Positions 1,076 to 33,784 of a stretch of 64,000 bases of DNA are shown in pieces. The stretch lies in contig CAYOSE010000003.1 in assembly GCA_964406535.1 (NCBI GenBank), forward strand, positions 127 through 64,126, written 5' to 3'. Both the position numbers and the translations under genes were made by a program. Position 1 is the first letter of the stretch. Every line of letters begins with the position of its first letter. The notes beneath the pieces are model-generated. The model was given only the letters and a program-made list of their open reading frames with translations, made no database searches and was not told where the DNA came from. Source of the DNA: an uncultured Sphingomonadaceae bacterium (lineage in GTDB: Bacteria; Pseudomonadota; Alphaproteobacteria; Sphingomonadales; Sphingomonadaceae).

Positions 1076-1162
1076 GCCCAGATGGCGGAATTGGTAGACG
1101 CACCGTCTTCAGGTGGCGGCGATCGCAAGGTCGTGGAGGTTCGAGTCCTCTTCTGGGCACCA
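1076..1162 (+). tRNA. tRNA-Leu (anticodon CAG)
   Basis: Acceptor stem GCCCAGA/TCTGGGC, D-loop GGAATTGGTAGAC, anticodon stem CCGTC/GGCGG with loop TTCAGGT, long variable arm, T-loop GGTTCGAGTCC, encoded CCA. Confidence 0.97.
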
Positions 1163-1338: not shown

Positions 1339-2541
1339 ATGGCTCTGACGACTCAGCAGGTTCGCGGGTTCAAGCCGAAGGATAAGCCTTACAAGAAGGG
1401 CGATGAGAGAGGCCTGTACCTCCTCGTAAAACCGAATGGCTCAAAGCTCTGGCATCTCAAGTATCGCTTCGGCGGCAGGGAAAAGAAGATGCCGATTGGC
1501 GCTTTCCCGGAAGTCGGCCTGGCGCAGGCGCGTCACGAAAGGGATCGTGCGCGCCTCGCGATTGCCGATGGCATCGACCCCATGCGCGAGCGCAAGCGGG
1601 AAAAGGCGCAAATCAAGCTTGGCGCAGAGAACACGTTCGCATCTGTGGCGCAGACCTACATCGAGGAGAAGATGGTCCGGGAGGGGCGGGCCGAGGCAAC
1701 GCTTCGCAAGGCACGCTGGTTTCTCGATCTGCTCAAACCTGCCGTAGGGAACATGCCGCTCAATGATGTCGATCCGCAGCTGATGCTGGCGGCGCTCAAA
1801 AAGCTGGAGGCGAAAGGCAATCTGGAAACGGCGAAGAAGTGCCGTTCGTTTGCAAGCCGGGTGTTCCGGTTCGGAGCGGCCATGGGTCTTTGCGAGTCTG
1901 ATCCGACATCAATCCTCAAAGGCGCGCTGGTTTCGCCAAAGGCGCGGCATTACGCGGCGATCCTCGAACCGGAGAAGCTGGGTCAACTGCTGCGCGCGAT
2001 CGATGGCTACGAGTGCTACCCTGTCACGAAATTCGCATTGCAAATCGCGCCTCACATATTCGTGCGGCCTGGCGAACTTCGTCACGGAGAGTGGGAGGAG
2101 ATCGACTGGGACAAAGCCACCTGGACTATTCCAGAAGGCAAAATGAAGGCGCGCCGGACCCATGTGGTGCCGTTGTCCCGGCAGGTTCTGGAACTGTTTC
2201 GGGAGCTGAAGTCGATTTCCGGCGGGAGGGGATACATCTTTCCGGCATTTCACACCCGGCAACGGCCCATGAGCGAGAACACGATCAATGCGGCCTTCCG
2301 CCGCATGGGTTTCACCAAGGACGAAGTCACAGCGCACGGTTTGCGTTCGACGGCGTCCACCATGCTCAACGAAAGCGGCCTCTGGCATCCCGACGCCATC
2401 GAACGCGCACTGGCCCATGGCGATAGCAACGCGATCCGAGGCGTCTACAATCGTGGCAACTACTGGGATGAGCGCGTCAAAATGGCTCAGTGGTGGAGCG
2501 ATAATCTGGACAAACTTCGAAAAGGCGAATCGAGCCGTTGA
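1339..2541 (+). CDS. int: P4-family tyrosine integrase with N-terminal arm-binding domain
   Basis: N-terminal KPYKKGDERGLYLLVKPNGSKLWHLKYR; catalytic motifs VRPGE, HGLR, LAHG, VYNR; adjacent to tRNA/attL. Confidence 0.96.
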   Translation: MALTTQQVRGFKPKDKPYKKGDERGLYLLVKPNGSKLWHLKYRFGGREKKMPIGAFPEVGLAQARHERDRARLAIADGIDPMRERKREKAQIKLGAENTFASVAQTYIEEKMVREGRAEATLRKARWFLDLLKPAVGNMPLNDVDPQLMLAALKKLEAKGNLETAKKCRSFASRVFRFGAAMGLCESDPTSILKGALVSPKARHYAAILEPEKLGQLLRAIDGYECYPVTKFALQIAPHIFVRPGELRHGEWEEIDWDKATWTIPEGKMKARRTHVVPLSRQVLELFRELKSISGGRGYIFPAFHTRQRPMSENTINAAFRRMGFTKDEVTAHGLRSTASTMLNESGLWHPDAIERALAHGDSNAIRGVYNRGNYWDERVKMAQWWSDNLDKLRKGESSR

Positions 2542-2568: not shown

Positions 2569-3273
2569 TTAGAGCGGCAAATATTCCATATGGATGCCCC
2601 AAAAATCCGCGGGATCTCGATATAGGTTGATCGTGTTGCTGGAGCAGAACGCGACAAGGCCCGAAGGCGGCTGCGCCGGGAGATCGTGGGCCCACCAAAT
2701 GAACCAGCGCCGCGTGTTGCGGGTGCGACTTGGATTGGTGCGCATAGTCATTTCTCGACGAACTCCGAGAAGTTCTTTCAAGAGGGCTTTGTTGAACACG
2801 CGATGTTTTGCTTCAACACCTAGTAAGACTTCGTCTGGCAGGGGTCTCTGGCTAGTGCCTGGAACCACCAGCACGATGTCAAGTTCATGGCATTTGCCAT
2901 AAATCTGGCCGGTGAGGGCTTTCGCTGCGCGGCCTGCGCTGATTGCCAGACATTCAATATCTACCCAGAGCTCGCCAACAGTCCCGCGATCGTCGTCGAT
3001 ACGGATATACGGCCATTTGGCACGATCAATTGGTCCGCCCTTGGCGCGGAACACGAGCGACGATCCATGTACGAGAATAAAGCTTAGCGATGAACGCATG
3101 GCCTTCAGCCTAGCCATCACTTCAATCAACGCGTTTAATTCATATGCTTTCTCCTGCAGTGTCGCGCTCGCGAGCAATTGGCCGGCGGTCCGACGATCCA
3201 ATCCCAGATGACTACGAAAGGCGTCACGCAGCTTCTTCTTCACTGTCGTCGATGTACGCGGTTTGAGCGCCAC
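2569..3273 (-). CDS. Hypothetical protein, putative PD-(D/E)XK nuclease
   Basis: 234 aa; ELDIVLV...LLGVEAKHR resembles a D...ExK motif; GTG start overlaps the TAG of the upstream gene. Confidence 0.55.
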   Translation of the reverse strand: MALKPRTSTTVKKKLRDAFRSHLGLDRRTAGQLLASATLQEKAYELNALIEVMARLKAMRSSLSFILVHGSSLVFRAKGGPIDRAKWPYIRIDDDRGTVGELWVDIECLAISAGRAAKALTGQIYGKCHELDIVLVVPGTSQRPLPDEVLLGVEAKHRVFNKALLKELLGVRREMTMRTNPSRTRNTRRWFIWWAHDLPAQPPSGLVAFCSSNTINLYRDPADFWGIHMEYLPL

Positions 3274-3740
3274 TACCGTTCTCCATCTGAACTGTCGGTT
3301 GCGTCCTCCCAGAAGCCGCCGTCGTCACCATGGATCATGGCGACAAAGCTGCGCAGAAATTCAATCATCGCATCGACTTCCTCGGATTCTCCGGACAGTG
3401 AGCGTCGATCTTCACCGAACTCGACCTCGAATGTGTCCACAGGATCTCCTTCCTCGGTCAGGAGAAGGCTCCCTAAGCGTTCGCGCTGTTGATTGAGCGT
3501 CCAGTGCGATCGCGATTTTAGGAAGAGCATAAACTCGCTGGCATAGAGGCGTAGATCACTCAGAGCGGGCTCATTGGCATCAGCCGCCTCTATTGAACTA
3601 TCCGCCGCACCCGCTCGACGCTCTTCGATCGCTAGCTCCATGGCAAGGTCCCAGTTGGCATACCCGGAGCGTTGGACCAGCAAGCGGAATTCGTCGAAAA
3701 CGTCCTGCCATTCCTCCTCGCTAAACTCACGCGTGTCCAT
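3273..3740 (-). CDS. Highly acidic hypothetical protein
   Basis: 155 aa, about 39 D/E versus about 14 K/R by hand count; AGAAGG RBS-like sequence upstream; coupled to the downstream gene. Confidence 0.7.
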   Translation of the reverse strand: MDTREFSEEEWQDVFDEFRLLVQRSGYANWDLAMELAIEERRAGAADSSIEAADANEPALSDLRLYASEFMLFLKSRSHWTLNQQRERLGSLLLTEEGDPVDTFEVEFGEDRRSLSGESEEVDAMIEFLRSFVAMIHGDDGGFWEDATDSSDGER

Positions 3741-3945: not shown

Positions 3946-5070
3946 TTGCCCTTGCTCTGCTCCACAATCGTTGCACCTGACAGTTCACATTGGGCCAAAT
4001 GGCTTGACGCGATGTCCGCTGATGATCGCATTCGACAAGAGCGAGCACTTTCGTTGCACGATCGGCTCCTCGCACAAGGTCGTATACCTCTACTGTGCTG
4101 GCACCACCTGGAAGAATTGCTCGGTGGAGATGATGACACAAAAGCTCGCAAACGTATCTCCTTCCTGACGTCGCTCCCTCTCATCGCGTGGATTCGGTTG
4201 CCAAAAGACCAAATCGGGCTGGCATCCGCCGCACATGTGCGCGCCGCCGAGGTGATCGCAGCGAGCGAGGGCCTGAACGATCTTATCGATATCCGCGATC
4301 GAGCTCGCGAGCTTCTCTTGCGATTTGGAACCGGCAGCCAAGCCATCGGCGAAGAAGAGTGGGTTTGGGAGGCGGTGCGTCCCATATTGCGAGCGCGCAA
4401 GAATGGATCTGACCTGATCGCCGCTCTGGGACCGCTGCGCACATTCGACGAAAGCCGGACGATCGGCGAGCTTTCGAGGGGTTCGATTAATTCCCCGCAA
4501 GAGATGCGGGCGCAGCTGGGAACTATTCGCGCCAAGGCGTTTGAAGAAGCAATGCAGAGCACTGGCGGAGACGTGGTTCGAGCTGGGGAGATGGCGAACG
4601 AGTTCCTAGTGCGAATCTTGTCGAAGCTTCCACCACCAGGGACAACCATTCGGGAACTATTGGTCTCCTCTCTGGTCGATCAGGGCCTCGACGAAGCTGA
4701 GGTGCGCGATGAATGTGTTCTGGCGGACCTTAGTCGCCTTGGTGTGTTTCGCAGCCAACTTCGGGTGATCGCGTCCGAGACTGGTCACTCATTTGAGGCA
4801 CTTAAGCGCGTGCCAATGGACGTGCTGCCTAGCTGGGTGGTCGCTGAGGCCCTTCGAAAACATGGACAGGTCAGAAAGCTACGACCGGGCAGTGATCTAC
4901 ACGATAGCCATCTCGCTGTATTGGCTGCCTACTGCGACGTGCTTTATGTCGACAAACGGACGGCAGAAGATTTCCGGCGTGCAGAGAGTAAGGAGCCGGA
5001 GCTTGTTGGGCTGATAGGGACCATTGCCAAGGCGAGCGACTTCGACGGAATCCTGGCACCAACAGGTTAA
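3946..5070 (+). CDS. Hypothetical protein, possible PIN-like nuclease
   Basis: 374 aa; acidic residues in PIN-like positions: IVAPDSS, HHLEEL, DLHDSHLAVLAAYCDVLYVDKR; start codon uncertain. Confidence 0.5.
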   Translation: MPLLCSTIVAPDSSHWAKWLDAMSADDRIRQERALSLHDRLLAQGRIPLLCWHHLEELLGGDDDTKARKRISFLTSLPLIAWIRLPKDQIGLASAAHVRAAEVIAASEGLNDLIDIRDRARELLLRFGTGSQAIGEEEWVWEAVRPILRARKNGSDLIAALGPLRTFDESRTIGELSRGSINSPQEMRAQLGTIRAKAFEEAMQSTGGDVVRAGEMANEFLVRILSKLPPPGTTIRELLVSSLVDQGLDEAEVRDECVLADLSRLGVFRSQLRVIASETGHSFEALKRVPMDVLPSWVVAEALRKHGQVRKLRPGSDLHDSHLAVLAAYCDVLYVDKRTAEDFRRAESKEPELVGLIGTIAKASDFDGILAPTG

Positions 5071-5269
5071 CCGCGATCAATTGTGCAGCCGACAACCGGA
5101 TTGAAGCCGGTAAGGCAACCAAGGGGCTAGCTTCACCGAGTCAAGGCTAACCGAGGGCCGCAGTCCCCTGTCGCCGTCTCGCGAAAAATCCGCTCGCTTC
5201 GAAATGGTTCTGCAGAGTGCGGACATGGTCATCCGCTATGTCGTTTTCCTTGAAGCGCCGTTGTCACGG

Positions 5270-5869
5270 CTATGGCTGATGGATCTTTTCGGTGAGGAAG
5301 AACACGCCGTGTAGCGTTGAAACCAGCATTGAAGAAAACGCAAAGGTGAGCGCGATGCCCACAATGGCTTTGACTAGGAGCCAAGGCCATACTGCTCCAA
5401 TAGAACCAGCAATGAAGGCGTGCAGGGCCTCAATCGCACCGGACAGCGCATTGATGGCCACTAACGCAAAGCACAGGCCGAACGACACAACGACAAGGTA
5501 GGAAAACAGGTAGGAAAGGAACAGCCGCCGGGTCAAAGGGTTGGCCTTCACTATTTTCCCGTTGACCAGCATATCTATCGTCGGCGCAGGCGAGGGCATT
5601 TCCTTGTCCATTGAAGTGCTGCCAAAGGTCGCAACCGCTGCAAGGCCAGCGAAATAGAATCCCGGAAGCGTTGAAACCAGCGTCAGCAAACTTGTTGCAA
5701 GGCCACCTTCACCAACAAGCGCGGGTTTGACAGGCAGCACGACGTAAATGACAACGGCGACGACCGTAAGAATCAGCGGAAGCCACGTGGTATAGGTCCG
5801 CATTTCGACGTGCGAAATGCGGCGATAGGCGACTCCCCGACCTAGTTCATATAGTAGCTGTCCAAACAC
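5270..5869 (-). CDS. Four-TM membrane protein (RexB/KwaA-like architecture)
   Basis: 199 aa with four hydrophobic stretches (WLPLILTVVAVVIYVVLP; LLTLVSTLPGFYFAGLAAVATF; LFLSYLFSYLVVVSFGLCFALVAI; LLVKAIVGIALTFAFSSMLV); GTG start 1 nt after the upstream stop. Confidence 0.75.
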   Translation of the reverse strand: MFGQLLYELGRGVAYRRISHVEMRTYTTWLPLILTVVAVVIYVVLPVKPALVGEGGLATSLLTLVSTLPGFYFAGLAAVATFGSTSMDKEMPSPAPTIDMLVNGKIVKANPLTRRLFLSYLFSYLVVVSFGLCFALVAINALSGAIEALHAFIAGSIGAVWPWLLVKAIVGIALTFAFSSMLVSTLHGVFFLTEKIHQP

Positions 5870-5870
5870 C

Positions 5871-6854
5871 TCAAAGCGTCCGATGGTTCAGAAATTCCGG
5901 GATTGCCAAGTCCCTCAAGTGACTAACTACCTGCATAGCAGATTGGTCCAAAAATGGATAGATATTAGTGAGTTCGAAGAACTTGACGTATAGTTCTTCA
6001 AGTGGGTTCCCAGTGGTGGTATCAATTTGCACCGTGACGGTTTTATTGTTCCCCGGAACCTTATAACTGACCTTTGCTACGCCATAAGTTCCAGAGTTTG
6101 CTTGGAACGATTGGACGAGTGATTGCCACATATTCGCTGGAAGATTGTTTTGGTCCAGTTGAAGGCGAAGTTCGGTTTCCTTCTTCTTCAGATAGGCGGA
6201 ACCGGCGATGGGCGTTACGGCTTCAGCTTTGACAAGTGATATGCCGGTAATCTGCCCGTTGTTAATGTCGGCAATTAGCGTGTCCGACGGCCTGCCTCGC
6301 AGTTCGATATGTGGGCAACACCGCTCCATTCGTGGTTGGCCTTGGCGGGTCAATCCGCCCGCTGGATGGGGATATGTAAACGACGTTGCGTCGTCCCTAT
6401 ATTCGTAGTGCAGCAACTTCGACAAAAGCCTTTGCACAAGGCTGGACGCCAAACCCGGAATGCGCTCAATCGCGCATGTGTAGATGTTTGGAAAACCCTG
6501 TTCTTGGGCCGTCGAAATGATGACGTGGCATCCGAAGTCGGAACCTTCGTTTTCTTCCTTTTCCAGCACATTGAAATGCCCGGCAGCGGGGTCGGAATAC
6601 ACGGCGTTTGGCGTAGTCTTATCAGACAAGCGGACAAGCAACGTGATGAACTGTTGAGCAGCGTCAATCTGAATGTCACCAACCAACATGGTGCCGGTTT
6701 CAGAACGAATTGGATAAGTGCGGGCCGTATCCTTCATGCGCTGGAAGACCGGAACGATGTCGTCCATCGTAGGGATAGACGCACCTTCCTTACGGGCACC
6801 AATTTCCAGATCGTATATGTAAAACTGCCTACGATTGTTCTGCATTCGATACAT
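5871..6854 (-). CDS. Soluble hypothetical protein (RexA/KwaB/DUF4747-like candidate)
   Basis: 327 aa, beta-rich pattern, no TM segments; operonic with the 4-TM gene; fold call is inference only. Confidence 0.6.
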   Translation of the reverse strand: MYRMQNNRRQFYIYDLEIGARKEGASIPTMDDIVPVFQRMKDTARTYPIRSETGTMLVGDIQIDAAQQFITLLVRLSDKTTPNAVYSDPAAGHFNVLEKEENEGSDFGCHVIISTAQEQGFPNIYTCAIERIPGLASSLVQRLLSKLLHYEYRDDATSFTYPHPAGGLTRQGQPRMERCCPHIELRGRPSDTLIADINNGQITGISLVKAEAVTPIAGSAYLKKKETELRLQLDQNNLPANMWQSLVQSFQANSGTYGVAKVSYKVPGNNKTVTVQIDTTTGNPLEELYVKFFELTNIYPFLDQSAMQVVSHLRDLAIPEFLNHRTL

Positions 6855-7025
6855 CCCTGTTTGCCGTGAGATAGCACGGCGAATCTTTTGCCGCCATATT
6901 CAGCCCACTGATTTGGTGTAACAAAGCAACCCGCTAGGATACGGCTTCGCGCCATCCTGTGGCCTCCCCAAGACGCTAAGCCAGTTGCCGACCCATACGC
7001 GGTCCATCTGCCCGAAGGCCGGGCG

Positions 7026-7250
7026 CTAAGCGCCCGGTTCCTTCTTCTCGTCGTCCAGCGGCGTGCGAAGGACAATCCGGCCATTGATCGGCACGACTTC
7101 CAGTTGAAGCGAAAGGCCCTTGCGGTCGCGGTGGAACCACGCGGCTCCGATGCGGGTCCAGAAGCCCTTGTCGCCCTTGTTGGCGACATGCCAGGCGAGG
7201 AAGTCCGGCGGATTGGTCTCCTGCGCGGGTGCGGTATTGCTGCGTGCCAT
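7026..7250 (-). CDS. Small conserved element protein, DUF736/PC4-like putative ssDNA-binding protein
   Basis: 74 aa MARSNT...PPDFLAWHV...WTRIGAAW...GLSLQLEVVPINGRIVL; AAGGA RBS before ATG 7250. Confidence 0.6.
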   Translation of the reverse strand: MARSNTAPAQETNPPDFLAWHVANKGDKGFWTRIGAAWFHRDRKGLSLQLEVVPINGRIVLRTPLDDEKKEPGA

Positions 7251-7453: not shown

Positions 7454-8365
7454 TCAGGATACCTCGTAGGACTTTTCCAGCAGCGGCTTTGCCTTCTCGA
7501 AATCGGCGGAACTCTGGATCGTAATCTCAAGATCGCCAGTGCCGAAATGGCCGATACCGCGCACATCGCGGGTAAAGCCTTGTTCGAGCACGACGCTGTC
7601 CGGATCGACTTTGACATAGACCAGCAGCTTCTTGGCCTGATTGCGGAACTCAAGACTGGCGAAATTCTTGATGCGACGGAAGGCGACATAATAGGCGGTC
7701 GTCTTGGCTTCCACGTCGTCGCCAAGCGCGAGCATGAAGTCCGACATCAAATGATAAAGGTCGGTCAGCTCCTGGGGTGCCTCTGTCATCTGATCTTCAA
7801 TGGTCTTGTAGTTCGGCTTGGTGCCGGTCGGCGCGGCAGGCACGGCGGCTGAAGTCGGCCCCTTCGCGCTGGCAGAGGTAAGTTGTTCAAGCAGCAGAAG
7901 GTCGCCTTCAAACTTCCGGTAGCGAATGAGCGAGATATTGCGGTTCATCTGCTTGACCGCATGCTCATCGTATTTGCCGAAATCCCCGGCGATGCAGATC
8001 AGGCGCGGCCCGGACCAATCGACGGCTTTGGCCGCGTCCTTGCCGAGCTTTTCCAGCACGAGCCATTCGAAGTCCTTCCGGTGTCCCATCAACCAGTCGA
8101 GGTAAAACAGGCCCTGATTGATCACGTTCTCGTTCGACGAACGCTTGTACTCAATCACTACCGGGCTATTGTTCTCGTCGATCCCAAGGCTATCCATACG
8201 ACCACCCTCGTTGGTGATGAACTCGCTCGCGAGAAACCGGACGCCGAGAAGGCTCTCAAGATTGGCTTCGAACAAAGTCTGCAGCGACTTCTCCAGAGCA
8301 ACCGCTCCGCCGGACAACTCGGCAACGCCGCCCTGAGTCATTCTGTAGAGTTTGATGTCGCTCAT
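7454..8365 (-). CDS. NucS/DUF91-like PD-(D/E)XK domain + DUF5655 protein
   Basis: 303 aa; LEKSLQ...GRMDSLGID...VIEYKR nuclease motif; C-terminal RDVRGIGHFGTGDLEITI typical of DUF5655. Confidence 0.8.
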   Translation of the reverse strand: MSDIKLYRMTQGGVAELSGGAVALEKSLQTLFEANLESLLGVRFLASEFITNEGGRMDSLGIDENNSPVVIEYKRSSNENVINQGLFYLDWLMGHRKDFEWLVLEKLGKDAAKAVDWSGPRLICIAGDFGKYDEHAVKQMNRNISLIRYRKFEGDLLLLEQLTSASAKGPTSAAVPAAPTGTKPNYKTIEDQMTEAPQELTDLYHLMSDFMLALGDDVEAKTTAYYVAFRRIKNFASLEFRNQAKKLLVYVKVDPDSVVLEQGFTRDVRGIGHFGTGDLEITIQSSADFEKAKPLLEKSYEVS

Positions 8366-8372
8366 GCAGGTC

Positions 8373-9161
8373 CTACCTCGGAAGCTTGTAACGGATGGTC
8401 AGGGATGCGCCCTTTCCCTTTGGTGGTTGGGCAAGAATTGAATCGGCAGCTTTCTGCTCCGCATACATGGCATTGCAGCAGCTTGGCATGGCTGCTTTTG
8501 GCCCCGGATAGCCTCCGAGCTCGCGATGGAGTTCGCCGGAATTGATGTCGAGAAAAGTAGCTTGGCGCATCTCGGCAAGGCGCAGTTTCTTGCGGATTGC
8601 CTCCCGGAAATCATCGGTTGTAGGTATGGAGTTGGCAATTCCTTGTGGCGTAGGTGGAGCGATGGGAAGGCTCGGCTCCGCAGTGGCCTCTAGCTCAAGT
8701 CGGCGACCTGACATGCTCACTGGATTGAGCTCCCAGACCTCGACATCCTCCGGCACCATGTGACCCTGAGTGCGCAGATAATATTCGGCAAGACTCTCGC
8801 TGCGACCGTCGCGAAGGCTCTCCTGCACGATCAGAATCTTGCGATAGCCAGACGGTGCCAGGATGAAATGCAGCATCGCCTCGTTCAGTGACCGCAGCTT
8901 CGCGCTGGGGGCGTTGCCGCCGCTGGTCCAAGTGTATGACTTGCACTCAACAAGCACTGGTGGGGCATCGCCACCCAAGTCGAAGTTGTGCGCCTTCTTT
9001 CGCTCATGCCCAATCAGCGCAGAGAAATTGAAGTCCAGCTCGAGTCCTTGGGATGACAGGAAATCCCGGGCCGACTGTTCGAACTCACGCCCGGCATGCG
9101 CATTGCTGATCGCACCAACCCGTTGATGGGCATTCCGAGGTAGGTCCGCTTCGTCGCTCAC
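8373..9161 (-). CDS. Two-domain PD-(D/E)XK nuclease-like protein
   Basis: 262 aa; GREFE...HNFDLG...LVECKS N-terminal nuclease motif; separate C-terminal module INSGELHRELGGYPG...MPSCC...LTIRYKLPR; GTGA overlap with the MTase stop. Confidence 0.7.
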   Translation of the reverse strand: MSDEADLPRNAHQRVGAISNAHAGREFEQSARDFLSSQGLELDFNFSALIGHERKKAHNFDLGGDAPPVLVECKSYTWTSGGNAPSAKLRSLNEAMLHFILAPSGYRKILIVQESLRDGRSESLAEYYLRTQGHMVPEDVEVWELNPVSMSGRRLELEATAEPSLPIAPPTPQGIANSIPTTDDFREAIRKKLRLAEMRQATFLDINSGELHRELGGYPGPKAAMPSCCNAMYAEQKAADSILAQPPKGKGASLTIRYKLPR

Positions 9162-12100
9162 GCTGCGTATCGTCCATCTTTCAAACGACGTGCCTGTCCG
9201 ATGGCAGTGAGGGAATCGAGGATCGGGCGAACGGTTGCGGCGCGTTTGCCCTTGAAGGTGCGAGCGACATCCTGCGGGGCGAGTGGTACGGTCGAGGCGG
9301 ACAGGACGGCGGCAACGGCGCTGACCTGTTCGGGGAGCTTGTCAGGCCAGGGAAGCACATTGTCGGGCGCGGGGGCAGCCGCTTCGCCAAGGTCGAGAGT
9401 CTGCGAGATCGGGGCCTGATAGTCCGGGGCCTGGTATTCTGGGCGTAGCCAGCGGATAAGTCCCTTGGCTTCCTCGGCGGCGCGTTCCTTGTTGAGTGCG
9501 ACGAGGCGCGTGAGGATGTCCTCGTCTGAAAGATCGGCAGGCCAGCCATAGGCCTCTGCCACTTTGCGGTCGATGGCGTCGTGATGCTGGCGGATCAGGG
9601 TGACGAGGCCGCGATCATGGATATCGCGCTCGGCATCGGTCAGCGCGCGGCCCTCTCCATCGTTAGCTCGCAGGGCTTCGAGCACGTTGTAGACCTTGGT
9701 GAGAGTCAGGTCCTTGTTTTCGGCCAGCACCCGCTTTCGCAGCGCATCGAGCGCCTCGGCTTCGGCGCGGATTTTGTCCTTGAGTGGATCGGGGACATCG
9801 CACGGGAAGGGAAACTTACCGAAGCAATCCGAGTGATTGTAATTCGAGTCATTTCCGACACCCAGCCATGCTCCTGAGCGTTCAGCCCAAATTAAATGCG
9901 TACGGCTGCTAAGCACTCCAAGGTGGAAGGCGTCTTCCAAACCGATGAATATGACCTTTGCGTCGGGCAATGTTGTGATCCTCTCAAACGAGAAGAGACG
10001 ATATTTGGAAGTCCGACATGTAGCGATGAAGCGTTGAAGTCCTGAAGCTGCCGCACGCATGTCCGATCTTGGCTCGGCATACACCCACCATTTTTCGCGG
10101 TAAGACGCTCGCTTGTTCTGATCTCTTACAGGTTTCACTCGGTGGAGCAGTATTTGATATAGGTCAGGAAATTCGCTTCGGAATTCCTCCTCCGAATAGC
10201 CGAACGCATCGATGACGAAACGAGTTTCGCGCCGTCCAGTCAGATCCATCCCGATTATATAGTCTTTGACGACCCCAGATTGCTTTGCTGTCGCAAGATC
10301 GAGTCGGTCTAGGTCGGTTGATTCGAGTCTAAACCCCTTCCCGACAAGGGTCACACCTTGGTAGCTGATTTTCCCATTCGAGCTGAGGTAGGATGAACCG
10401 GCAAGGTTACTTCCGACAGAAAGGTCGGAATTGATTTGATCGCCAGCTTTTGTCGAGAGCTTGACCCAGCGCTCCCCGTACCCGTCCGATATCAGACCCT
10501 CATCAACCACTTCCTGCAAGATTGACTGTCCCGAATAGCCTCCTGTTGTCATCGCGATGCGCACGTCCGCCCCATCTGCTCCATCGACCCAGGGATGATC
10601 GGGAATGGCGAAGAGAAGTTTGCACTTCGCCGCTTCGATCACTGACCTGTTGAATGTTTGCGTGATCGAGTTTGTCGTGATGAACCCAAATCGTGTTGTG
10701 TCACCTCTTGCGGTCGCAGCTGCTGATACTGCCCACCAGTACATCACGAAATCGACCGACTTGCTGATCTTCGGATAAGCCGTACGGACTGCTTCCGCGT
10801 ATCCATCGCCTAACCTGTCGCGCATGCGCTTGTTGCCGATAAATGGCGGGTTCCCGACGATGAATTCCGCATTTGGCCACTTCGTCGATCGCGGTTTGAC
10901 GTAGCGGTAAAGTTCTTTCCGCCCGGTTTCGTCGGGCACCAGTTTTCCGGTAACTGGGTGCTTTTTGAAGCTGATGCCATCCCAAATGCTGAGTGGCTTG
11001 CCGTGCTCATCGCGTTCCAGCTCGCGCCTGTCGTAATCGATCAGGGCGTCGCGGTTCTCGATAGTGCGGATGTCCTTCAGGATCGGTTCGGGCGGGGCGC
11101 GGTCCTTGCCGTTTACGCGGAAATGCCATTGCAGGTAGCCGATCCATAGGACCAGCTGCGCGATGGCGGCGGCGCGCGGGTTGATTTCGATCCCAAGGAA
11201 ATTCTCTGGCGTGATTGTGTGTCCGGTGATCTCCGCTACGTATTGATCGTCACCCAGCTCGACCAAGAGGTCGAGCACTTCGCCCTCCAGTTCCTTCATT
11301 CGCGCCATGGCGACATAGAGGAAATTGCCGGTACCGCAGGCAGGGTCGAGGACGCGGGTTTGCGCCAGTTTTGCATGGAAGCCCTCGACAAGCGACCTAG
11401 CCTCTTTCGCCTTGTCCGCGCCGATAAGTTCGGAGGCGGCAGCACGCACCCCGTTCCAGTCAGCGCGAAGAGGTTCCATAATTGTTGGGCCGATCAGCCG
11501 CTCGACATATGCGCGCGGCGTGTAGTGCGCACCAAGCTTGGCCCGTTCCTTTACGTTGAGTGCGCGTTCGAGCAACGTGCCAAAGATCGCCGGCTCGACC
11601 TCGGTCCAGACCTTGTTCGCCGCTTCGATCAGCACCTTCAATTCATCGGCATCGAGCGGCAGTGCATCGGTGTTCTTGAAGAGGTAACCATTGAATTTAC
11701 GCACCTGCACCGCGAGCGCGGGCGAGAACTCGCCCGAATCCATCGCCTTCCACAATGCCGTCAGCGAGCGAGGCAGGTTGTCGAGATTGTCCTCATGCGC
11801 TTTTAGCAGCGTCTTGAAGCTATCCTTCGGCAGCAGAACTTCGGTGTCCTCTGCGAACATCGTGAACAGCACGCGCATGAGAAACCCACTGACGGTTTCG
11901 GGATCGTGGTTGCGCTCCAGCCGCTTGGAGAGGGTGGCCAGCAGGTCGGCAATTTCACGGGTGACGGCGGCGGAGCGCGATGCCGGGTCGAGACTTTGCG
12001 GATCGGTCCAAATCGCGGCGAGGCGTTCGCGTACCTTCTCGTCGCGCAGGTCCTCAAGCATGATGCGATAACCGGCCCGGTCGGGAAACTGCGCGTAGGC

Positions 12101-12625
12101 CTTGCCGGTGCCGGTGAAGTCAGCATAGACCTCAATGCAGTATCCGATGTCGGCCACCAAGAGGAACGGCGGCCAGCCATGTTCGGTGGGCAGTGCCTTT
12201 GCATAGCGCTCGGCCTGCCCCTTCGCCTCCTGCATGGCCTTAGCCCAGGACGGTGTGCCGCGACGCGCGGTGCCACGGGCAACACGAGCCTTGGCCGTCT
12301 GGCCAAAAAGGTCGAGGTCTTCATCGCCCTTTTCGGCAGCGACGCGGTCTGCCTCACTGCCCTGTTTGGCTTCGAGCACGAAGCAATCGCGCTTGTAGCA
12401 ATCGATGCGCCCGAAACTCTCCGTGCCGTCGCCATTGTCCTGAAACACGCGGCGCTCGAACACATAGTCGTTGGTGGCGTCATCCGCCTTGGCCCCTCGC
12501 GGTGGATCGGCACCGAGCAGCTGGGTCAGGCCATTGATGAAGAGTTGCGTGTTGGCGAGTTCACTGCCGCCAGTCTCGCGCCAATCGGCGATGAATTGTT
12601 CGATTTGATCTTGCGGCGCGGTCAT
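9158..12625 (-). CDS. MmeI-like type IIL fused restriction endonuclease / N6-adenine methyltransferase
   Basis: ~1155 aa from ATG 12625; N-terminal GRIDCYKRDCFVLEAKQG nuclease motif, GAHYTP, motif I VLDPACGTGNF, motif IV NPPF, C-terminal TRD. Confidence 0.9.
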   Translation of the reverse strand: MTAPQDQIEQFIADWRETGGSELANTQLFINGLTQLLGADPPRGAKADDATNDYVFERRVFQDNGDGTESFGRIDCYKRDCFVLEAKQGSEADRVAAEKGDEDLDLFGQTAKARVARGTARRGTPSWAKAMQEAKGQAERYAKALPTEHGWPPFLLVADIGYCIEVYADFTGTGKAYAQFPDRAGYRIMLEDLRDEKVRERLAAIWTDPQSLDPASRSAAVTREIADLLATLSKRLERNHDPETVSGFLMRVLFTMFAEDTEVLLPKDSFKTLLKAHEDNLDNLPRSLTALWKAMDSGEFSPALAVQVRKFNGYLFKNTDALPLDADELKVLIEAANKVWTEVEPAIFGTLLERALNVKERAKLGAHYTPRAYVERLIGPTIMEPLRADWNGVRAAASELIGADKAKEARSLVEGFHAKLAQTRVLDPACGTGNFLYVAMARMKELEGEVLDLLVELGDDQYVAEITGHTITPENFLGIEINPRAAAIAQLVLWIGYLQWHFRVNGKDRAPPEPILKDIRTIENRDALIDYDRRELERDEHGKPLSIWDGISFKKHPVTGKLVPDETGRKELYRYVKPRSTKWPNAEFIVGNPPFIGNKRMRDRLGDGYAEAVRTAYPKISKSVDFVMYWWAVSAAATARGDTTRFGFITTNSITQTFNRSVIEAAKCKLLFAIPDHPWVDGADGADVRIAMTTGGYSGQSILQEVVDEGLISDGYGERWVKLSTKAGDQINSDLSVGSNLAGSSYLSSNGKISYQGVTLVGKGFRLESTDLDRLDLATAKQSGVVKDYIIGMDLTGRRETRFVIDAFGYSEEEFRSEFPDLYQILLHRVKPVRDQNKRASYREKWWVYAEPRSDMRAAASGLQRFIATCRTSKYRLFSFERITTLPDAKVIFIGLEDAFHLGVLSSRTHLIWAERSGAWLGVGNDSNYNHSDCFGKFPFPCDVPDPLKDKIRAEAEALDALRKRVLAENKDLTLTKVYNVLEALRANDGEGRALTDAERDIHDRGLVTLIRQHHDAIDRKVAEAYGWPADLSDEDILTRLVALNKERAAEEAKGLIRWLRPEYQAPDYQAPISQTLDLGEAAAPAPDNVLPWPDKLPEQVSAVAAVLSASTVPLAPQDVARTFKGKRAATVRPILDSLTAIGQARRLKDGRYAA

Positions 12626-12676
12626 CAAGTGCTTGTAGTCGCGAGATTGACCGCGCCGCAATTGCAATATGGTGTC

Positions 12677-13874: not shown

Positions 13875-15389
13875 ATGCCCTCTGAGCCGCTACAGATTCC
13901 AATCCCGCGCAGGACTGCGGATGCGACTCCTCACGCGGCATCGCTCATCCAGAGCTTGCGGGATATTGGCTATTCCTCGGAAACGGCGCTTGCCGACATC
14001 ATGGACAACTCGATAACCGCTGGTGCGCGGAAGATCGAAATACTGTCCGAAACGAATGCGATTGAACCGGCGATTGCTGTCCTCGACGACGGCTGGGGTA
14101 TGACCCTGGACGAGCTCGTCGAAGCGATGCGACCCGGCAGCAGCAATCCGCTCGATGATCGTGCCTCGGGCGATCTTGGACGCTTCGGGCTGGGAATGAA
14201 AAGCGCCAGCTTCTCCCAGTGCAAGCGATTGACTGTCCTGACCCGAAAGAATGGCGCGACTTCCGCCGCGACCTGGGACCTTGATGAGGTGTCGCGGACC
14301 AACAAGTGGGAAATCGAGCTTCACGACAACCTGTCAGACATTCCCTGGAGCGAAAGGCTTGGGGAACGGGGAACGCTGGTGGTCTGGCGATCGCTGGACA
14401 GGCTTTCGGGCGGAATAGAGAACGATCAGAGAAAGCGCGCGGAACATATCAATCGTCTGCTGGCAGAAGCCGAACGCCACATCAGGCTGGTGTTCCACCG
14501 CTTCATGTCAGAGGATAAGCCACCGCTCGAAATAATGCTGAACGGCAGAAAGCTCGACGCCCTTGATCCGTTCGGGACCAGATTCCCCAAGCATCAAGCC
14601 GACAGGCCGGACCGGCTTGAACTCAAGAATGGATATGTCGAGTTTCAGAGCTTCACGCTTCCGCACCACAAGGAAATCCCGACTGCCGACTGGAATGACC
14701 TGGGTGGTCCTGAAGGACACCTGCGAACACAGGGGTTTTATGTTTATCGAGGCAGACGTCTGATCATTGCTGGAAGCTGGCTCGGGATGGCGAGGCAGAC
14801 CGAGTTGACCAAGCTGTGCCGTATCCGCGTCGATATTCCAAACACAATGGATTCCGACTGGAAGATCGATGTGAAGAAGGCATCGGCGCAGTTGCCTCCT
14901 GCTGTTCGTGAAAGGATGCGACTGCTCGTTGAACGGCTGGCCGTAACGTCAAAACGCACCTACCAGCGCCGAGGGAAGAAGCTCGTGGACAACGAGTATT
15001 TCCCGGTCTGGCAGCGCATCCAGCGAGATGGTTCCATCATCTATCGTCCGGACCTGGCTCACCCGGTTTTCGCCGACTTCTCGGAGAAACTGCCAACTGA
15101 TCTGCAGTCGGATTTCGCGAACCTCATCGGACTGATCGGCTCGTCGGTCCCGGTGGCATCGCTGCATTCGGACTTCGCTGGCTCGCCCGAAGACGTGAAA
15201 GCCGAGGATGCAGATGAACAGTCACTACGACAACTCGCCGAGGCGATGATCCCGAGGCTTGTCGAGCAAGGCACCGACAGAGAGCGAATTACGGAAATCC
15301 TCTGTCAGATCGAGCCGTTCAAGTCGGCTGCCGCAATCGCACGGAATGTGGTCGGTGAAGTTCTCGAGGGGATCGCTTGGAATGACTGA
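13875..15389 (+). CDS. GHKL/MORC (MutL-like) ATPase of an Mza-like defence operon
   Basis: 504 aa; LADIMDNSITA, DDGWGM, GRFGLGMKSASFS GHKL motifs. Confidence 0.9.
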   Translation: MPSEPLQIPIPRRTADATPHAASLIQSLRDIGYSSETALADIMDNSITAGARKIEILSETNAIEPAIAVLDDGWGMTLDELVEAMRPGSSNPLDDRASGDLGRFGLGMKSASFSQCKRLTVLTRKNGATSAATWDLDEVSRTNKWEIELHDNLSDIPWSERLGERGTLVVWRSLDRLSGGIENDQRKRAEHINRLLAEAERHIRLVFHRFMSEDKPPLEIMLNGRKLDALDPFGTRFPKHQADRPDRLELKNGYVEFQSFTLPHHKEIPTADWNDLGGPEGHLRTQGFYVYRGRRLIIAGSWLGMARQTELTKLCRIRVDIPNTMDSDWKIDVKKASAQLPPAVRERMRLLVERLAVTSKRTYQRRGKKLVDNEYFPVWQRIQRDGSIIYRPDLAHPVFADFSEKLPTDLQSDFANLIGLIGSSVPVASLHSDFAGSPEDVKAEDADEQSLRQLAEAMIPRLVEQGTDRERITEILCQIEPFKSAAAIARNVVGEVLEGIAWND

Positions 15390-33660: not shown

Positions 33661-33684
33661 GAGTCCTCTTCTGGCACCATTTCA
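33661..33684 (+). repeat. attR
   Basis: GAGTCCTCTTCTGG-CACCATTTCA, 24 of 25 nt identical to attL. Confidence 0.93.
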
Positions 33685-33784
33685 ACATACTTCGATGTTC
33701 GTGGGCGGCAGTTGCAGCTGTCGATACCAGTGGGTTGGGCACGGTCTCTTGTTTTAGGCGATCCCGCAGCTGCCTGAGAACAGC

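Follow-up and report, generated by a model that had tools for sequence, protein, structure and literature searches.

A gene pair on a Sphingomonadaceae integrative island belongs to PDC-M53 and is probably a RexAB-type abortive-infection system

Genes PP_5643 and PP_5644 of Pseudomonas putida prophage P1 have been described as a RexAB-type defence, RexABpp (Sci Rep 2026, PMC12894663). Both genes are needed for defence, and deletion of either sensitised P. putida to phages (PMC12894663). The soluble protein, RexApp (37.5 kDa with a His tag), dimerises and binds DNA non-specifically, and, in a manner that depends on RexBpp, cells overexpressing it stop growing, take up dye and leak enzymes as the membrane is permeabilised (PMC12894663). 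Suppressor mutations in RexBpp were found at W25, F35, L55, T103, S145, G153 and Y181, and a two-hybrid assay detected no interaction between the A and B proteins (PMC12894663). PADLOC, DefenseFinder and the PDC systems go unmentioned in that paper. The PDC systems are a set of 145 candidates found embedded in BREX, DISARM and type I restriction-modification (RM) loci (Payne et al., bioRxiv 10.1101/2024.01.29.577857). For lambda RexA, RdgC has been reported as a structural relative (PMC11077077).

The pair studied here lies in the window, by which we mean the whole 64-kb stretch of DNA from an uncultured Sphingomonadaceae bacterium that was analysed (Table 1). The ORF list and translation place both reading frames on the minus strand where they had previously been reported, gene A upstream of gene B, with 1 nt between the stop codon of A (TGA) and the start codon of B (GTG). 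The earlier note had described a 327-aa soluble, beta-rich gene followed 1 nt later by a 199-aa gene with four transmembrane (TM) segments, and the reading frames, hydropathy and structure models all agree with this. Since nearly all of the 120 close homologues of A have the second ATG as their first residue and are 324 aa long from there, the true start of gene A is probably the ATG at 6845, giving a protein of 324 aa; the motif GGGA lies 8 nt ahead of it. For gene B (224 homologues) the GTG start is supported because the first 22 residues hold positions that are invariant among the homologues (within residues 7-20, before the next ATG). From inspection of the sequence, the promoter of the pair would lie in the upstream region that follows the 74-aa ORF, which ends in a GC-rich hairpin; a scan of this region for the sigma-70 consensus found no promoter.

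Table 1. Positions in the window of the gene pair and of its neighbours on the island
Feature	Positions	Strand	Basis or remark
tRNA-Leu(CAG)	1076-1162		with the integrase, one island boundary
Integrase	1339-2541		with the tRNA, one island boundary
Gene B, PDC-M53B / RexB-type membrane protein	5270-5869	-	199 aa, GTG start; PADLOC, hydropathy, AF2 model
Gene A, PDC-M53A / RexA-type soluble protein	5871-6854	-	327 aa counted from the first ATG; PADLOC, homologues, AF2 model
Upstream region of the pair, presumed promoter and leader	6855-7025	-	sequence inspection; 3' of the stop and hairpin of the 74-aa ORF
74-aa ORF directly upstream of the pair	7026-7249	-	ends in a GC-rich hairpin (7017-7039)
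PDC-S18 / DUF5655 protein	7454-8365	-	E 6.8e-144
262-aa ORF, unannotated	8373-9161	-	between PDC-S18 and the type IIG RM gene
MmeI-like type IIG restriction-modification enzyme	9158-12667	-	PADLOC E 0
MzaB-like GHKL-ATPase protein	13875-15389	+	MzaB match E 2.3e-85

Both genes matched a catalogued family over essentially their full length. Protein A matched the PADLOC model PDLC04696 (PDC-M53A) at E 3.7e-48 (residues 4-305 of 327, profile positions 1-302 of 320) and four further PDC-M53A models at E values from 2e-26 to 1e-9, while protein B matched PDLC04699 (PDC-M53B) at E 7.1e-40 (residues 5-199, profile positions 2-187 of 188). Gene order and protein sizes are also those of PDC-M53, and no structural difference was seen. 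On these model matches the pair is assigned to PDC-M53, a catalogued anti-phage candidate, within an alphaproteobacterial, island-borne clade. The earlier note had regarded the pair as possibly undescribed and as its best candidate for a novel system, and had named a strong hit to a named system as the result that would remove the novelty. As both genes match PDC-M53 models full length, that claim fails, and for the window the result is one of annotation.

Searches of A and B against Pfam, NCBIfam and PDB sequences gave nothing except a sub-threshold DUF2938 match for B. When 1.84 billion cluster representatives were searched with a profile, 631 clusters (at 50% identity) reached E <= 1e-3, and 346 of them reached E <= 1e-10. 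Every one of 105 diverse full-length representatives of the family was matched by PDC-M53A and by no other named system; RexA, RdgC, DUF4868, DUF4747 and Pfam families of any kind were absent from the same 105. The PDC-M53 models found nothing in 14 control genomes.

A link between this family and RexABpp was provided by an IMG/VR provirus (L036, taxon 637000222), which carries a CI-like repressor gene, two small genes, an A gene (330 aa), a B gene (188 aa) and HicB/HicA, the same layout as that published for P. putida P1. Six of the seven published RexBpp positions (W25, F35, L55, S145, G153 and Y181) are occupied by the same residues in its B protein (5001-5567). The seventh, published as T103, corresponds to T102, residue 103 being D, which would mean that the numbering in the paper slipped or that the provirus is not exactly the published strain. 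The computed mass of its A protein with His6 is 37.47 kDa, against the published 37.5 kDa. From the layout, the presence of hicAB, the six residues and the mass we infer that L036 is prophage P1 of P. putida KT2440. The provirus scored 1.1e-157 on PDLC04694 (M53A) and 3.8e-73 on PDLC04699 (M53B), and Pfam RexA had no match in it. Because the provirus fits the P1 locus and scores so highly on the PDC-M53 models, RexABpp is very probably itself a PDC-M53 member, and the family would then count, on this sequence evidence, a RexAB-type system with experimental validation among its members. The provirus also encodes a HIRAN-domain protein (3146-3559; Pfam E 1.4e-17), whose gene has the CI-like repressor gene on one side and the RexA-type gene on the other; the gene in this position in P1 was dispensable for defence in the published P. 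putida work (PMC12894663).

The window proteins are homologous to both proteins of the provirus. Window A is 31% identical to its A protein over 257 aa (blastp, E 3e-22) and window B is 29% identical to its B protein over 196 aa (E 2e-20). The order of the genes is the same, the sizes are comparable (330 and 188 aa in the provirus, 324 and 199 aa in the window), and each of the two B proteins has four TM helices, its N and C termini lying on the same side. Apart from the identity of about 30%, the two loci differ in setting: the Pseudomonas pair lies in a prophage 3' of a CI-like repressor gene, whereas the window copy lies in a tRNA-Leu island with no repressor nearby. They differ also in what is known of them, in that the experimental data belong to the P. 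putida pair while the window copy is known from its sequence. As far as we have found, the correspondence between PDC-M53 and RexABpp is stated in neither the P. putida paper nor the PADLOC paper. If it is correct, PDC-M53, with its 631 clusters at 50% identity, moves from a candidate to a RexAB-type exclusion system. The family ranges from Pseudomonas prophages, where it follows cI, through enterobacterial lambdoid phages, where it lies between Q and the lysis genes, to alphaproteobacterial islands, and on the same condition the spread of Rex-like systems would go well beyond the five described to date.

Taken from its homology to RexABpp, its architecture and its context, the window pair probably works like RexAB, as a two-gene abortive-infection or growth-arrest system of the PDC-M53 type in which A would sense phage DNA and activate a membrane-damaging B. 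Protein A would be a cytoplasmic, dimer-forming, non-specific DNA binder that senses a phage replication or recombination intermediate (DNA or a DNA-protein complex) and, once activated, switches on B. Protein B would be an oligomeric four-helix protein of the inner membrane, with both termini and a conserved loop facing the cytoplasm, and would make the membrane leaky, so that growth stops and the infection is aborted. For a copy about 30% identical to the P. putida pair, we infer the same behaviour, the trigger and a direct contact between A and B. The earlier note had read the pair as RexAB- or Kiwa-like; homology to the presumptive RexABpp upholds the first half of that reading, and the second half is taken up with protein B below.

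The structure of protein A was considered next to those of lambda RexA and RdgC. It has no hydrophobic segment (the top Kyte-Doolittle score over 19 residues is 1.21), and its AF2 model is confident (pLDDT 93.2, pTM 0.87), giving a beta-rich alpha/beta protein whose N-terminal domain combines two helices with some seven antiparallel strands, whose middle part is rich in beta structure and which has a helix at its C terminus. In a Foldseek search of the PDB the model had no significant match (best E 3e-3, TM about 0.1). The earlier note had proposed comparison with RexA, RdgC, KwaB and DUF4747; lambda RexA (8TWQ), RdgC and KwaB were all absent from the top 50 PDB matches of the model, and DUF4747 was likewise without a match in the family representatives. 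Against BFVD the best four matches were uncharacterised proteins of siphoviruses (E 1e-8 to 6e-12), followed in fifth place by a protein of Xanthomonas phage FoX4 (E 2.9e-3, probability 0.96, TM 0.29/0.24), a member of the Pfam RdgC family (E 1.6e-36). The model thereby gives a weak indication of a fold link between A and RdgC, the fold class of RexA. Beyond this weak fold-level match to a phage RdgC-family protein, RdgC (PF04381) has no sequence similarity to A, and it differs in acting alone, with no membrane partner.

Lambda RexA and RexB (PF15969 and PF15968; 8TWQ) have no detectable sequence or profile similarity to A and B. Neither Pfam family matched either protein, so that the pair falls outside the lambda family as Pfam defines it, and the earlier note was right that the sequences match neither lambda protein, the Pfam, HMM and profile-profile comparisons all being empty. 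When hhalign was used to set three PDC-M53A alignments with different centres against 30 aligned lambda RexA sequences, P ranged from 0.12 to 0.58. Whether the A alignment was close, broad, SfII-centred or Pseudomonas-centred, the comparison with lambda RexA was negative, and P was 0.27 when the B alignment was compared with lambda RexB. The published HHpred link to RexA was not reproduced by these profile-profile comparisons, which were run without a secondary-structure term. A control comparison of RexA with RdgC, an accepted pair, was also negative, which means that the test is too weak to speak against shared ancestry or a kinship of folds. The window proteins are also longer than their lambda counterparts, A by about 45 residues and B by about 55, and to judge from the secondary structure of the model the middle domain of A is more beta-rich than lambda RexA, which has a four-strand, four-helix dimerisation domain.

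Conservation within A allows another view of what this protein does. Across the 105 representatives (18-56% identity) there is no variation at H110 and E130 and almost none at R9, D78, K99 and G200, and R9, D78, K99, H110 and E130 also occur in the presumptive RexApp. With a fold that finds no significant PDB match, these residues could be taken to mean that A is an enzyme or a small-ligand sensor using the cluster in its N-terminal sheet domain (R9, D78, K99, H110 and E130), with B still the effector and a trigger or chemistry unlike that of lambda Rex. We consider this unlikely: DNA binding by the P. putida homologue is non-specific (PMC12894663), and SfII_50, the A homologue of Shigella phage SfII, has Y and T aligned at the positions of the His and Glu, so not every member of the wider family has the polar cluster. 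Quite unlikely, too, is the form of this proposal that is confined to the alphaproteobacterial island-borne clade, in which the cluster would be a catalytic or ligand-binding site and A would sense or process a specific molecule instead of acting as a non-specific DNA clamp. If true, it would make these proteins a mechanistic variant of Rex in a fold without a solved relative.

Hydropathy of protein B indicates four long hydrophobic helices, at about 23-44, 57-81, 114-141 and 161-197, and the AF2 model (pLDDT 89.8) likewise has four long helices; it adds an amphipathic helix at the N terminus and places a beta-hairpin within the middle loop. Foldseek found no relatives of the model in the PDB (best E 0.9). 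The amphipathic helix and the loop, which is predicted to be cytoplasmic, show strong conservation and might serve for docking if the roles were reversed, as in the gp30/gp31 pair of mycobacteriophage Butters, with soluble A as the toxic component and membrane-bound B sequestering it until infection. According to the literature, Rex-like pairs can act in this way (discussion in PMC12894663), but in P. putida the toxicity of A overexpression needs B and the suppressors map to B (PMC12894663), and we hold the reversal to be highly improbable for the window pair.

A single four-TM protein next to a soluble protein of about 320 aa is also, superficially, the composition of Kiwa, in which a membrane sensor of phage attachment is joined to a DNA-binding effector; both systems have two genes of similar sizes. 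In Kiwa, however, the TM gene comes first, whereas in the window pair the soluble gene does. No KwaA or KwaB model was among the PADLOC matches of A or B at E <= 1, neither DUF4868 nor another Pfam family occurred in the 105 members, and no Kiwa structure (KwaA or KwaB) was among the Foldseek matches of either model. A Kiwa-type system was given next to no probability, and Kiwa identity was ruled out at the level of sequence and fold search; this is the part of the earlier reading that did not survive.

The setting of the pair is that of a mobile defence island. Its GC content (0.515) is the lowest among all 1585-bp windows of the 64 kb (median 0.616), in line with the AT-richness already remarked upon. 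One boundary is formed by the tRNA-Leu(CAG) and integrase genes; the 3' end of the tRNA (1143-1168) recurs at 33661-33685 (25 nt, with a one-base deletion) and forms the other. The tRNA 3'-end repeat and the integrase delimit an integrative island of about 32.5 kb that holds the pair. The tRNA-Leu gene, the integrase and the PDC-S18, type IIG RM and MzaB-like neighbours bear out the defence-island setting that the earlier note had proposed. Another defence system begins, judging from the sequence match, at the MzaB-like gene. The PDC-S18 gene, the 262-aa ORF and the type IIG RM gene (7454-12667, minus strand) make up a tight same-strand block adjoining the pair. The 74-aa ORF resembles, we assume, the small DUF736-type proteins of alphaproteobacterial integrative elements. 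No repressor gene adjoins the pair in the window.

The order of the two genes is strongly conserved, as gene-pair comparison had been expected to reveal if they form a unit. A is followed by B on one strand at nine of nine alphaproteobacterial genome loci and at all 37 IMG/VR viral loci (36 of them tightly spaced), and the same order is kept in SfII and in the Pseudomonas genomes, prophages included, whose loci were examined. In SfII the homologues of A and B are SfII_50 and SfII_49 respectively (phmmer, 2e-10 and 2.6e-22). The SfII pair (L017, 3390-5004) has the position of a moron: it lies between the Q and holin genes and runs opposite to the late operon. In one Pseudomonas prophage the pair begins 42 nt 3' of a CI-like repressor gene, opposite a Cro-like gene, and among the 37 viral loci at least 10 have a CI-like gene no more than 1.5 kb upstream of the pair. 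The succession of a CI-like repressor and then the pair, frequent in Pseudomonas, mirrors the cI-rexA-rexB layout of lambda. A scan of IMG/VR with the alphaproteobacterial B alignment found no relatives.

The distribution of PDC-M53 is sporadic. No strong match was found in 150 other genomes of the host's family; the system was present in none of 400 other genomes of a Pseudomonadota sample and, in a separate set, in 5 of 401 Pseudomonas genomes. Among 124 flanking ORFs from ten alphaproteobacterial loci there were matches to type IIG RM, AbiE, AbiU, DRT, PDC-S20, PDC-S36 and methyltransferase models, as well as four integrases, three resolvases and housekeeping genes. Carriage on an integrative island and on prophages, together with the growth suppression brought about by B-type proteins, might suggest that the pair, as a membrane toxin and its regulator, mainly serves the mobile island for addiction or stabilisation and is not primarily anti-phage. 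Against this, deleting either of the P. putida genes sensitised the cells to phages (PMC12894663), a separate HicAB module adjoins the pair in the presumptive P. putida prophage, and PADLOC found PDC-M53 embedded in restriction, BREX or DISARM loci; an addiction role is accordingly very unlikely in our estimate, and an abortive-infection system of the RexAB type remains the reading we prefer.

Two of the alphaproteobacterial loci showed features of their own. In a Sphingobium metagenome-assembled genome (L006, 5904-6874) the A homologue is 88% identical and appears as two overlapping tblastn pieces that meet near locus position 6251-6260, which points to a frameshift or to faulty assembly; B is intact there. 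In Martelella (L010, 11836-15864) a gene convergent to the pair encodes a 1342-aa protein without a Pfam domain, and after this gene come UvrD-like helicase, SRAP and ImuB-type genes; the 1342-aa protein may be the product of another uncharacterised defence or repair gene.
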